Below, piece by piece: positions 3,001 through 12,000 of a stretch of DNA of 64,000 nucleotides. The notes under the pieces are model-generated. The model did no database searches. It had not been told where the DNA came from and saw only the letters and a list, made by a program, of their open reading frames with translations. The position numbers were made by a program, and so were the translations under genes. The DNA is from Chrysomallon squamiferum (taxonomy: Eukaryota > Animalia > Mollusca). Location: contig CM022665.1 of the NCBI GenBank assembly GCA_012295275.1, positions 44,082,001-44,146,000 of the forward strand, in the 5' to 3' direction. The stretch's first letter is position 1. Each line of letters starts with the position of its first letter.

Positions 3001-6000
3001 GAGATCTGTACATTTTTTACTTTTATTTTCAGTGTCAGTCAATTTGCATTTTTAATTTTTTTTTATATGTATATTTTAATTTTAAAATTTCCTTTCGAAA
3101 TTTAAAGAAAGATAGATAAATTGGATTTTAATCATTTTATTATCAGCTTTGCCTGTGATGATGATGTTATCCCTGTCAGACATGATGTGTTGATATTTTG
3201 AAACTGAGGCATTAAATTTGTTCAGAGGGGAAGCAAAAATAATTAAAATAAAGAAGAGCAAAACAACTGTATATTTTAGTTTGTATGTTCAGACTTGATA
3301 CTATTAGGTTTTGTTATTGTTTTGTTTTTGGTCCATTTCTGTATTCAGCACACATTTTCAAAATTCTTTTATAATTGACAGTATTCAAGGTTTTTGTTAC
3401 TGTTTTCTAAATTTATTATTATTATTATTATTATTATTATTATTATTATTACTGTTTGTTATTGTTTTCTAATATATTGTCATTATTATTATTACTACTA
3501 TTTGTTTGTTTGTTTGTTCAGTTTTCTGGTTGGATTTTATAAAAAAAAGACAATAAAAAGTATTACTGATATGTAATAATAATATACACAAAATTGGTAT
3601 CTCAGTATTCTCTCCATTTTCAGTGTCCAAAAATCAGTGATGTTGCCATGGAAACCAGTGTGAAAATTGCCAAGCTTCTCATTGCAAAAGGATGTGACCC
3701 AAGTGCAAGAACGACAAACGGGAAAACACCCATCATGTTCGCTATAGAGAGGGTAAATTTATTTATTTGCTTTCTCATCGGAGCCATTTAATTTTCATTT
3801 GCATTTTTATGATTATTACTAATTTCCTTCTTCATCATGTAATCACAACATATCGGCACAAAAATATTTTAATTTTTTTTTTTTTTTTTAAAGTACATAA
3901 CAGACAAACAGTTGGACAGAAACTTATTAATATCTTTTTTTTATTATTTTTTTCTTCTAATAATTAATTAATTAATAAAAAAAGAAATAACTCATCTTGC
4001 TACTGTAAGAAGTGGAGTGACTTCCAATCCATCTTCCAAATTGCATGTAACATTCGGATTTGATCCAAATTGAAGTTAAAAAAATAAAGTATAAATAAAC
4101 GAAACAGCTACAGTGTTATGATCTGATACTAAGATATTTCAAAATCAAATTACAAGTTTGAAAGGGAAGTAAGTGTAAGTTATTATGAAATAATTATTGT
4201 TATACATGGCAGAGTCTGGTTTTACTAAATATATAAACCAACCACTTGATTGTGTATAAAATTTATTTAGGCAGTATGTTCACACTTGCACCAGAATATT
4301 TTAGTGCTAGCTCATAATTATTCATCTTGATACTGTTAGTGGATTTTGTTTGTTCATGTTGCTAAAGTTAAGAAATTCAGTGAAAAACCTTAACGGATGG
4401 GGGAAACAACTAGAATTTTTTGGATTCTTTTTTTTTTTAATTATTATTATTATTTTTTTTTTTTGCCTGTGATGATGAAGTTATCCCTGTCAGACATGAC
4501 ATGTTGAGTTTTCTAAAACTGAGGCATGAAAATAATTATTTTTTTATTGGATAGTTAGATTAAGCAACATGCTGATTTAGTATTTAAACAAACCTAACGG
4601 TTAGATTTGAACATGATTTGGAAAGAATTAAATAAACATCTGAATGCAAGAATGACCTGACTAAAATTACATTTTGTGAAAAGGAATGGCCTCCTCCGAA
4701 CAGTGTTGTTGATATTAATAGATTTAAGTTCAGTAATTTTATTGAATTTTTCAAAGAAATTGTAGAAAATGTATAAATATTTATAAGACTTTAATAGTGA
4801 TGAATTTATTTATCTTTAAATTTTATTATTATTATTATTATTTTATTTTATATTTATTTTTTTATTATTATTATCATCATCATCATAATATTAATGTTAT
4901 TTTACACACACACCAAGTTGAATATTTGATTTATGCTAACTGTTTAATTTTTAAAACTATTTCATTTCTATTTTAATCTATTTTATATTTTCCGTTACTT
5001 ATTTATTCAGCTGAATTCGAAACTGGTGAAGTTTCTGGTAGAAAATGGAGGCACTGTGTCTGCAGAGAAGGACAAAGATGGTAAAAATGTGCTGCACTTG
5101 ATGGCTGAACAGTGCATGACAACAGACATTGCTTCTCTGTTACAGATCTTAGCAGAACAGGTGAGATAGCTGAAAATACTATTTTCTAAAAATTAGTTTT
5201 ATTTATTTTTATTTTTAGCTCAGCAGGTGAGAGTGCTTAAAATACTGTTTTCTAAAAGTTAGTTTTATTTATTTTTTAGTTTTAACTGAGCAGGTGAGAG
5301 TGCTGAAAATACTGTTTTCTAAAAATTAGTTTTATTTATTTTTTATTTAAAGCTGAGCAGGTGAGAGTGCTGAAAATACTGTTTTCTAAAAATTAGTTTT
5401 ATTTATTTTTTATTTAAAGCTGAGCAGGTGAGAGTGCTGAAAATACTATTTTCTAAAAATAGGTTTATTTTTTATTTTTAGCTGAGCAGGTGGGAACAGT
5501 GAAAATGCTATTTTCTAAAAATTGTGTTTATTTATTTTTTATTTTTAGCTGATCAGGTGAAAATACTGTTCTATTTATATTAGTTCTGTTTATTTTTATT
5601 TTTATTTTTTTTTTATTTTTTTTTATTATTATTTATTATAGTTCATTGCATTTTTTTTCTGTTTTATTTCTGTGAAGAAATGTTTTTAAAGAAATAAACT
5701 GATTTTAAGGATAAATATTATTGTTTTTTAAATTGTTATATAATTTCCATCTTTTTTTTTAAATTAAGCGTTACATTTAAATCTGAATGTTTTTTGTTGT
5801 TGTTTTTTTTTGTTTTGTTTTGTTTAAACATTCTATTTTTTCTTTACTGTATTTTGAATTGTTCTTTTTATTTTCTTCTTTTGTACATTTTTTTCATTTT
5901 TAAAAAAATATTATTTTTATTTTTGCCTGTGATGATGATGTTATCCCTGTCAGACATGACATGTTGAGATTTTTTATCCTGAGGCAAAAAATAAAATAAA

Positions 6001-9000: not shown

Positions 9001-12000
9001 GACTGAAGCTGGTTCTTGACCATGCCCCAAATCTGGAGATTCGCAACATCGCAGGACTGACCCCTCTTATTATGGCCGTTGAGTCACAGAAACACGAAGT
9101 TGTCACATTACTGGTAAAAATTAAAATAAATAAACAAAGATAAGCATGTTGAGAACTGTTTATTATTTTAAATTGATAATTCGTTAAACAAACATTGAAT
9201 AATTAAATTCTAATCTTTTAAATTAGATGCTTTTTAACCATTTATAAAAAATTAATTTTATAATAATCATTCATGTATATAATTTTTCTCTGCTTTCCAT
9301 TTATTTGTTATAAAAAATATTATTAGTTCATCTTTTTAAAAATACTTAAACTCTAATCTTTTAAACCTTAGAATATTTTTTTAGCATTTAAACAAACAAA
9401 ATTAAAATAATTAAAGGATATAATAAATGATAATCCAAATATTTGTTTTCGTTTTTAAAGAGTAGTTTCCCCTGTGACTAGATTTTTAAGAGTGGCCTCC
9501 CTTATAACATAATTTGTTTGCCTATGATGAATTGTTGTCCCTGTCAGAAGTGGGTGTTGATTCTATTCAGACTGAGGCACATTTTTTGTTAAATTAATCA
9601 GTTATTATTTAAATTAAAACTTTTTTTTATTATTATTATTAAATTGTTTATTTTACATACATTTTCCTTTGAAACATAATTTAATTTGGAAAATATTAAC
9701 TTTTTGCTAATTGTGTTTTATTTTATTATTTAGCTTGAATATGGGTCAAATCCAAATGTTACGTACAAACTGGAAGATGGATCTGAAGTAACTCCACTTC
9801 TTACAGCAGCAAGGTAAGTTTATTGTTTATTTATTTATTTATTTATTGATTTATTGATTCATTCATATCATTTTTTTAATTTTGTATTTTGTAATTTTTT
9901 TTTATTCCTGATATCCAGAAATTCTAGATTTTAATAATGCACATATTACTGTTCTTACCTGATTTAATGTTTAATAATATTTTCCAGATTTAAATTTAGT
10001 TTTAAGCTAAAATTACTCTTGAGAATTTATAATCTATAATTTATAAACTTGAATTTGGCATTTCTAAATAACAGTTTGTCTGTTGTTGTTGTTTTTTTTT
10101 ACCTAAAAATATGTAAAAGATGTAAAAATGTTTAAAATTTAAATCAAAATACTTTCTAAATTATATTATGCATCTGTTGTTTAACTTTAAAAATTAAGTA
10201 ATAAGATGTCAGTTAAGTAAATTTGGATTAATATATTTCATCTTAGGCTTTTGTGCAGTTTTGACTGCATTACTGAAAGCCTAAAATTTTAAATTTTATT
10301 TATTTCAACATCATGCACTGGTAGTGTGTGTGTGTAAGTAAGAGATTTTCTGACAATTTGTAACGTGCATATGTATTGCAGATACGGCAACTTGGCCTGT
10401 TTGAAACATCTGGTCAACGATCAAGCCAATGTCAAGGTCAAACACAGCAAGACACAGAAAACACCTCTCCATTATGTTGCCCAGAACCGAGGTTTGTATG
10501 ATTAGTTATTAAGAGACGACACCTGAACTAATGGTTATGCTTGAGTAGTTGGGAGATATGTAAAAGACTTGAGAATTTTTAAACTGAAATTGTTTTTAAA
10601 TTATACATCTAATACCCAAGGATCAAATCCAGGTAGTATCTTCTGCCCAGATGTTGCTGAGGGTGAAAATAAAAAATACTAGTGATTGGTTTGTTGGGTT
10701 TTTGGTTTTTTTTTCATGATATTAAATTTATTTAGACATATGTTCTGCCAAAATAATTTTAATTTTAATTTTAATTTTTTTAAATTCACAGTTTAGGGTC
10801 ATGTAACCTTATTTAGTAAATAATTTTCTGTCTTGTTTCAAATTAATCACAAGTATAATGAATGAGAGGATAAATTTAATTTATGAAAGGTCATCAAATT
10901 GGTTAAACTTAACACCCTGATTATTTATTTCTACCTTAAAAATGTTTTTACTGAAATAAATATACTACAGCTTTTCAGTAGTAAAAACAGATCTCAGAAT
11001 TCTTTTAGATTTGTGTCATTTATTCCCTATTTCCTTATTCAACTGTGCAGTTACAGAAAAATATCTGCACCTTTGTTTTAAAAACTCTGTTATTTATTCC
11101 CACAGTGAAAATTAAATTTTTAAAATTTTCTTTTCATGTTTAAAATAGCTCATGAAGCCAAAACGCTGTTGATGGCAAAAAGTTTGCTAATGGCTGGTGC
11201 TGACATCAATGCTGTTGACGAGGACAAATGTACACCACTACATCTGGCTGTCGACAGCAACCAAGGAACGTCAAATGCAAGCACTGATCTTGAAGAGTTC
11301 CTCTTAGACAAGGGAGCCGATCCTTTCTGTCTTGACAACCGGAAAAGGTTTCCCCTGCACTATGTGTTTATTAAGATCAACAGGTAATTGAAATGAATTA
11401 AACTGTAATATTTTAAACAAATTAGAAATAAATTTAGTGTTAAAAATACAGGATATAATCATTGATAATCCCAAGTTTTTTTTATTTCTAAATGAATTTT
11501 ATGAGGAAAGAAAAGCCATTTAAATGTTTCTTTTTCAAAGAATACATTTTTAAAGAGTAGTTTCCCATGTGACCAATTTTTTAGAGTAGCCTCCCTTATA
11601 ACAGAATTTCTTTGCCAGTGATGAATTGTTATCCCTGTCAGAATTGAGATGTTGATTCTATTCAAACTGAGGCACATTTTTCTTTTTTTATTCTCAACAA
11701 AAACCCACAGAACTAATTAATTTTCAACAAAGACTTACCAGTTTACCATTATTTATTAAAGTGGTGTATATTTATTTAATAAATAACAAAAGGAAACAAT
11801 GAATTTTTAATATGAAAAAATATATATTTTAAAAAGAAAGGTAAAACTTTTGATAATACTTCAGGTTAAATTTGGCATTTCAGCAAGTTTATTTCAGTGA
11901 TACTTCAAACAAAATCTAACAATTCTACAAATTTAAATAATTTATTCTGAATGCAGTTCTGTAATCAAAGTGTGTTACTTTATTCACAGAAGACAATCCT

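Follow-up and report, generated by a model that had tools for sequence, protein, structure and literature searches.

In yeast, snR38 guides the modification Gm2815 in the PTC (PMC8307265), and its chicken homologue, GGgCD64, is listed with the same guide as found here and with the target ACAGGGAUAAC at 28S-G3847 (PMC2653536, supplements 1 and 2). Chicken snoRNA families are listed with 1 to 5 copies, and paralogues are described as usually arising by cis-duplication with their guides conserved (PMC2653536). The host genes of snoRNAs are reported to change freely, under what has been called 'constrained drift' (PMC3511168), and animals are described as carrying mostly one snoRNA per intron, the clusters of Drosophila being of the H/ACA class while C/D snoRNAs stay single (PMC3089462). 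Among the PARPs, an ankyrin-WGR-PRD type has been set apart from both PARP1 and the true tankyrases (PMC2964712).

The window analysed here (the whole 64,000-nucleotide stretch of Chrysomallon squamiferum DNA) very probably holds eight paralogous snR38/SNORD1-type C/D snoRNA genes in the introns of a tankyrase-like PARP gene. Judged from their sequence, the copies are likely released from introns and are predicted to guide methylation of a G in 28S rRNA, with the host gene most likely passive. The features are as follows.

1 to 27898, plus strand: predicted host gene, ankyrin repeats-WGR-PARP_reg-PARP, from the gene model, alignments of relatives and domain matches
3150 to 3211, plus strand: copy 1, putative snR38-type C/D snoRNA, guide 3166-3176, intron 5, RF00213 score 41.5 bits
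4464 to 4526, plus strand: copy 2, guide 4480-4490, intron 6, 48.9 bits (above gathering)
5924 to 5986, plus strand: copy 3, guide 5940-5950, intron 7, 53.7 bits (above gathering), stem 8 bp
6373 to 8231, plus strand: modelled host intron 8 (1859 nt), longest among the 35 introns and containing copies 4-6
6708 to 6772, plus strand: copy 4, first of three in intron 8, 51.5 bits (above gathering), the most divergent copy
7299 to 7360, plus strand: copy 5, second of the three in intron 8, 35.4 bits (E 0.025), stem 3 bp, the weakest copy
7858 to 7919, plus strand: copy 6, last of three in intron 8, 40.2 bits
9452 to 9518, plus strand: upstream flank of copy 7, apparently co-duplicated, with its counterpart at 11547-11612 beside copy 8, from local alignment
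9519 to 9579, plus strand: copy 7, intron 10, 41.2 bits, G-U change in the guide
11613 to 11674, plus strand: copy 8, intron 13, 47.0 bits (above gathering)

The array spans 3150-11674, with all eight copies on the plus strand and in the sense of the host. The first-pass annotation had claimed eight sense-strand copies, and eight were recovered on the plus strand by guide counting, by Rfam and by a profile made from the copies. The 64,000 bases contain the 11-nt guide (at most 1 mismatch) 8 times, always on the plus strand and within 3166-11638; in dinucleotide shuffles of the window it occurred 0.53 times on average and at most 4 times, and 8 were reached in 0 of 100. The snR38/SNORD1-type C/D identity proposed earlier was upheld by the Rfam model snoR38 (RF00213), which matches 8 of 8 copies with 35.4-53.7 bits (E 1.5e-6 to 0.025). 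Its gathering score of 45 bits is passed by four of the eight, and these four are the only gathering-level Rfam matches in the whole window. The profile built from the eight copies scores them at 68.7-86.3 bits, values that are high by construction, and run over the 64-kb window it found nothing further, the next match having 7.7 bits. A guide-like stretch at 8721-8778 was considered as a ninth copy and rejected at background level (6.2 bits, E 0.5). Neither the guide search nor the profile search found an snR38-type copy in the remaining ~52 kb of the window. A repeat search of the window was dominated by AT repeats.

Each copy is 61-65 nt long and runs from a TGCC stem through box C (RTGATGA), 3-4 nt, the guide, D', a spacer, C', a second spacer and box D (CTGA) to a GGCA stem, the terminal stem having 3-8 bp across copies. 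Boxes C and D take these forms in 8 of 8 copies; D' (CAGA, but CATA in copy 4) and C' (RTGTTGA, but ATGATGA in copy 4) are degenerate yet present. A terminal stem had been annotated earlier as GCCT/AGGC, and a stem is indeed present, but its correct reading is TGCC/GGCA: in copy 8 an A replaces the T that had been paired with the A of box D, and this position is therefore better read as the unpaired kink-turn base of general C/D structure. In the eight-copy alignment, 6 of 41 columns vary in boxes, stem and guide vs 23 of 25 in the spacers, a contrast that is partly circular because the borders between functional and spacer columns were drawn by us, the copies themselves having been found independently by Rfam. 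Box C, box D and guide are intact in all eight at 71-95 % overall identity, and the guide is changed in copy 7 only, where A-to-G turns an A-U pair into a G-U pair away from the target position. Boxes, stem and guide are selectively conserved, a pattern consistent with selection, and the sole guide change preserves pairing. The functional elements conserved are just those that rRNA methylation needs. The spacers before box D, 55 % alike between copies, contain no conserved second guide, and the alignment of the eight copies has neither a conserved A-tail nor shared ends.

Divergence of both spacers and flanks had been noted at the outset; it holds for the spacers but not for all flanks, copies 7 and 8 being alike over ~65 nt upstream (local alignment score 97, reached by 0 of 100 shuffles). 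Copies 5 and 6 are 95 % identical, spacers included. These observations agree with the local expansion of one guide that had been proposed, the closest pairs (5/6, 7/8) being successive and one of them sharing a flank. Tree support is 96/95 for copies 7+8 and 84/84 for copies 5+6, the rest of the tree being open. Since the closest relatives are successive copies (5/6, 7/8, 1-3), a history of local duplication or conversion is suggested, in which one copy would have landed in the PARP gene and then spread via short local duplications or gene conversion. Selection for guide dose may lie behind the eight intact copies, a number above the 1-5 of chicken families.

With the published snR38 target ACAGGGAUAAC, the guide is fully complementary in seven copies (11 of 11 Watson-Crick pairs) and forms 10 such pairs plus one G-U in copy 7, as scored against the target printed for chicken GGgCD64. 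Six viral-contig matches to the rRNA motif were rejected as an independent 28S, not being rRNA by Rfam, and the target assignment therefore rests on the chicken supplement (PMC2653536). The fifth base before D' faces the middle G of the chicken-listed target, in keeping with the site and D'+5 position first named for this locus.

From established C/D biology, the host pre-mRNA would be spliced, the lariat debranched, and the ends trimmed by exonucleases up to the protection of the core proteins. The guide would then pair with ACAGGGAUAAC and fibrillarin would 2'-O-methylate the middle G (Gm2815 in yeast), which faces the fifth nucleotide ahead of D' and belongs to the peptidyl-transferase region of 28S rRNA. 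The distance from box D to the 3' splice site is 158-1463 nt across copies; the optimum for mammalian C/D snoRNAs is ~70 nt, and the copies here lie further. Extended stems formed from the flanks have a mean of 4.6 bp in cognate vs 4.2 bp in mismatched combinations, with no clear sign of selection at the RNA level. Besides these distances and stems, four of eight copies under the Rfam cut-off and the 3-bp stem of copy 5 count against the methylation-guide reading, as does a PARP lying outside the usual ribosome and translation hosts.

The host model has 36 exons in the window with 1799 codons open, its N-terminal ~600-660 residues falling before the window start. It aligns to abalone, land snail, cuttlefish and pearl oyster proteins at 46-52 % identity over most or all of the model (52 % to the abalone protein), relatives being named by NCBI 'poly [ADP-ribose] polymerase tankyrase-like', and the domain order of the modelled part is Ank-WGR-PARP_reg-PARP. 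Gene model and domain matches agree with the earlier description, which placed the copies on the sense strand in introns of an ankyrin-WGR-PARP gene. A word-index protein search with one host exon gave two ankyrin matches of low identity. The H, Y and E motif residues, which we take to be the catalytic triad, are retained. Domain scans of P0017 and P0008, the two full-length relatives, matched ankyrin, WGR, PARP_reg and PARP but no zinc-finger family. PARP1 (Clade 1B) was rejected as the identity of the host, the model having ankyrin then WGR and P0017 and P0008 having no zinc finger, BRCT or PADR1; the host's own first ~600 residues lie outside the window, and its N-terminus was judged from these two relatives. 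True tankyrase (Clade 4) was likewise rejected, WGR and PARP_reg being present and SAM unmatched in P0017 and P0008. By its domain matches (Ank, WGR, PARP_reg and PARP all found), the predicted product is an ankyrin-WGR-PRD PARP of tankyrase-like type, unlike PARP1 with its zinc fingers and BRCT and unlike a true tankyrase with its SAM (PMC2964712). It shares its domain order with the Clade 1A architecture (C. elegans PME-5-like), a placement made by architecture and not by a tree.

The first-pass annotation had gone further and joined host and guests in a possible loop; in the form weighed here, the copies would have been selected in this gene to let PARP transcription set the guide supply, and the snoRNAs would bind and activate the host PARP via WGR. 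The WGR, PARP_reg and PARP domains and the H, Y and E residues are kept in the host, snoRNAs are reported to activate human PARP-1 (PMC10440794), and WGR has been implicated in RNA binding (PMC7856298). However, the ankyrin-WGR-PRD type is distinct from PARP1 and true tankyrases (PMC2964712), no zinc-finger family occurs in either full-length relative, the copies conserve methylation-guide elements only, and snR38 sits in unrelated hosts elsewhere. A scan of 127 of 158 open stretches at 19 metagenome loci, chosen because their copies were multiple or short, placed Pfam matches to eIF4G-like, Prp19, RPLP0, TCP-1 and RRM genes beside snR38 copies (9 of the 19 had a match, 10 had none), and this PARP is matched by 0 of 118 other snR38 loci, a weak result as most of these loci are short. 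In one scanned locus (L077) the match, AdoHcyase, is ~6 kb distant from the snR38 copy, whose host it may not be. The loop was set aside on these grounds as very unlikely; it would matter more if true, and is without support from the findings here. A coupling of PARP to guide supply holds only if the eight copies are the genome's main copies. A snoRNA-derived mobile repeat, or a set of mostly dead pseudogenes, is a highly improbable reading of the copies as well. A large share of annotated snoRNA copies in animals has been described as unexpressed (PMC11028025) and four of the eight here score below the Rfam cut-off, but all lie sense-strand inside host introns with none in the other ~52 kb, their boxes C and D and guides have stayed intact despite 71-95 % identity, and the alignment reveals no conserved A-tail or common ends. 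The scatter on both strands named earlier as a mark of a transposon is absent within the 64-kb window.

The methylation-guide reading leaves the processing of intron 8 to be considered. An arrangement of one copy per intron fits introns 5, 6, 7, 10 and 13 but not intron 8, where copies 4-6 lie within one modelled intron. The exon 8/9 junction aligns to 10 relatives with no residues missing, tblastn of 14 relatives gave no match inside intron 8, and the best hidden-exon candidates between copies 4-6 scored 6.1 and 5.2, exceeded by 33/34 and 34/34 real internal exons, in tests (protein alignment, splice-site scoring) that would overlook non-coding micro-exons. The DNA separating copies 4-6 is ordinary AT-rich sequence with a GC content of 16-26 %. 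The copies would need an internal cut, or else trimming would stop at a ~1.2-kb RNA with snoRNA ends. It is conceivable, but rather unlikely, that intron 8 is a natural invertebrate polycistronic C/D intron, nuclease-cut into three or left as a ~1.2-kb sno-lncRNA. In the same reading, invertebrates would have amplified the snR38 guide repeatedly in unrelated hosts, under selection for the dose of one peptidyl-transferase-centre methylation. A similarly doubtful addition is that it yields a stable ~1.2-kb sno-lncRNA (6708-7919, copies 4 and 6 capping, copy 5 between them) or two-copy RNAs of ~0.6 kb; other products might arise if exons 6-8 were skipped in frame, introns 4-8 all being of phase 0. 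The three copies in one modelled intron with an uninterrupted coding junction, the hidden-exon candidates scoring below nearly all real internal exons, and the mammalian sno-lncRNAs made from two snoRNAs in one intron (PMC11028025; PMC4234469) speak for the addition. Weighing against it are the endonucleolytic release without splicing described for frogs and yeast (PMC10557570), the close clusters seen at other loci (82 nt between copies in L095), which make a processing route probable, the non-coding micro-exons that the tests would miss, and the plain AT-rich make-up of the spacers. In the literature found, sno-lncRNA descriptions come from mammals only.

The eight copies have the guide before D', the target and the box layout of snR38, SNORD1 (snR38A-C) and snoR38Y (RF00213), but are of a short form (61-65 nt) and sit in a PARP gene. 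Their D' is CAGA or CATA vs CTGA in snR38, CAGA and CATA each occurring in 11 of 135 matches of other loci. Eight copies compare with three human snR38 paralogues and one in chicken (PMC2653536); in metagenomes, 2-3 copies were found in 14 of 118 loci (12 contigs, some near-identical). Titles and abstract openings in the literature, with subscription journals largely uncovered, mention neither an snR38 in a PARP host nor a mollusc snR38 array. As it stands, the locus adds to annotation, being a mollusc snR38 locus in a new class of host and at high copy number. As modelled, intron 8 would have the geometry of mammalian sno-lncRNA introns, with more than one snoRNA per intron (PMC11028025), and would hold three C/D paralogues where the clusters of Drosophila are H/ACA (PMC3089462). 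Such a departure from the usual animal rule is the most experiment-worthy part of the locus; if processed, intron 8 would show how an invertebrate handles a polycistronic C/D intron, or would give an invertebrate sno-lncRNA. U14 in HSPA8, U18 in RPL4 and U58 in RPL17 likewise have one guide repeated in neighbouring introns of a single gene, with boxes and guide kept and the rest drifting (PMC2653536). Unlike these, the present array is larger, has a host whose function lies outside ribosome and translation, and puts three copies in what is probably one intron; the arrangement is familiar and the host unusual, and the locus fits a model of snoRNAs drifting among expressed hosts and multiplying locally.

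A set of snR38/SNORD1-type C/D snoRNA copies, numbered 1 to 8 from 5' to 3', lies within the introns of a PARP gene model, as follows:
1-27898, + strand: host gene (ankyrin-WGR-PARP_reg-PARP)
3150-11674, + strand: snoRNA copies 1 to 8

The guide GTTATCCCTGT, with at most one mismatch, was matched eight times in the window, always on the + strand and between 3166 and 11638, against 0.53 matches expected, and none of 100 shuffles reached eight. All eight copies match snoR38 (RF00213) in Rfam at E <= 0.025, and four pass the curated cut-off, these being the sole matches at that level within 64 kb. 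No ninth copy was found in the whole window using a profile built from the eight, the next match scoring 7.7 bits; the eight sense-strand copies claimed in the first-pass annotation are thereby confirmed, and their snR38/SNORD1 identity is supported. Copies are 61-65 nt long, are 71-95% identical to each other pairwise and have the same order throughout (TGCC, one loop base, box C, 3-4 nt, guide, D', spacer, C', spacer, box D, GGCA). Variable columns number 6 of 41 in boxes, stem and guide vs 23 of 25 in spacers, a contrast partly built in because the borders were set by the analyst. The sole guide change, A to G in copy 7, retains pairing as G-U. The array is genuine and well preserved and belongs to a known snoRNA family; its host is unusual.

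Under the established D'+5 rule the predicted methylation site is the middle G of the target, because the fifth base back from D' is the middle C of the guide. The target sequence was taken from a chicken 28S listing. The chicken snR38 homologue has an identical guide, its target being given as ACAGGGAUAAC in 28S (PMC2653536), so the predicted target and position agree with the earlier claim. Yeast Gm2815, in the peptidyl-transferase centre, is described as snR38-guided and over 85% modified (PMC8307265).

The host model, with exons called by eye and then refined to AG/GT borders, has 36 exons and 1799 open codons and ends at 27898. Ankyrin, WGR, PARP_reg and PARP were found in single exons (Pfam; match in 9 of 10 exons scanned), which together with the exon model supports the proposed ankyrin-WGR-PARP host with intronic copies. 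An abalone protein is 52% identical to the model, and proteins from land snail, cuttlefish and pearl oyster are 46% identical; NCBI calls the abalone protein, like several of the other relatives, a 'tankyrase-like' PARP. These matches suggest a mollusc, probably a gastropod. Further copies may lie upstream, since approximately 600-660 N-terminal residues fall before the window. Just after the PARP gene, at 34113-36278 (+), is a small spliced gene that, judged by eye, starts with a signal-peptide-like segment and has short exons rich in Cys; its first exon had no Pfam match. The first part of a myosin heavy chain gene was recognised by eye at 60327-62535; near 62485 a run of C shows an apparent one-base frameshift, probably an assembly error.

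Introns 5, 6, 7, 10 and 13 of the gene model carry one copy each and intron 8 carries three (copies 4-6). These three probably share one intron, because the exon 8/9 junction aligns to ten relatives without missing residues, tblastn of 14 relatives found no coding sequence in intron 8, and hidden-exon scores between the copies are low (best 6.1 and 5.2; real internal exons 5.3-24.6, leave-one-out), using a splice-site matrix derived from 35 introns of the host gene itself. The distance from box D to the 3' splice site is 158-1463 nt, and no extended stems formed from the cognate flanks of the copies. A 67-bp tandem repeat at 5158-5560 (6.1 copies, 88% matches) duplicates the last part of exon 7 together with the 5' splice site that follows it, so that intron 7 opens with a series of strong look-alike donors (matrix scores 11-13), upstream of copy 3.

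Nearest relatives are successive copies, namely 7 and 8 (96/95 support), 5 and 6 (84/84, 95% identical) and 1-3 (89-90%), the tree beyond the first two pairs being unsupported. This pattern fits short local duplications or conversions, because the closest copies are successive; nearly all chicken paralogues are reported to have arisen in this way (PMC2653536), and the route is also the favoured one for C/D snoRNAs generally (PMC11028025). Copies 7 and 8 have a ~65-nt upstream flank in common (9452-9518, 11547-11612), in which two imperfect, faintly guide-like units of ~30 nt were seen by eye; these did not score in the eight-copy profile search.

Metagenome contigs scanned with an snR38 descriptor (17 of 64 parts covered) gave at least 118 loci. 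Among the matches listed, 0 of 118 matched the host PARP model (tblastn, E <= 0.001), a weak test because the loci are mostly short and not identified by organism. Two or three copies are present in at least 14 loci (on 12 contigs, some near-identical), with 82 nt between the members of one pair, and snoR38 was matched in 12 of 12 loci scanned with Rfam. Among the matches listed, Pfam families beside the copies suggest eIF4G-like, Prp19, RPLP0, TCP-1 and RRM genes; such families were matched in 9 of 19 loci, where the scan covered 127 of 158 open stretches. Judged from these multi-copy loci and varied neighbouring genes, snR38 is often multi-copy and host-switching, the latter being predicted by the 'constrained drift' model (PMC3511168). 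Three of the metagenome loci are arranged as follows:
L045:664-3892: eIF4G-like gene (MIF4G, MA3) with three snR38 copies inside or next to it
L055:1000-1557: SNORD49 copy flanked by two snR38 copies, ~245-nt spacing
L095:300-447: back-to-back pair of snR38-like copies, the 82-nt space too small for an exon; Rfam match only to the second
No Pfam match was found near the L055 cluster, which by analogy may resemble a non-coding multi-snoRNA host.

We infer that, after transcription, the host intron would be spliced out with its copies, which would be trimmed and assembled into C/D snoRNPs methylating one 28S G, and that the PARP gene is very probably a passive carrier. The intron 8 trio would then require an internal cut, of a kind known from yeast and frog (PMC10557570); otherwise an RNA of ~1.2 kb with snoRNA ends would remain, an unlikely outcome for which such RNAs in mammals are a precedent (PMC11028025; PMC4234469). 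Strand, position and intact boxes of the copies in the window make a mobile or dead repeat very unlikely. The PARP-snoRNA feedback loop proposed in the first-pass annotation gained no support and is very unlikely, as it was built on what reviews describe for human PARP-1. The PARP hosting the copies is of a different kind, and only features needed for guiding are conserved among them. Two full-length relatives of the host had no zinc-finger or BRCT family, in contrast to PARP1, and no SAM family, in contrast to true tankyrases, and the ankyrin-WGR-PRD architecture has been set apart from both (PMC2964712).
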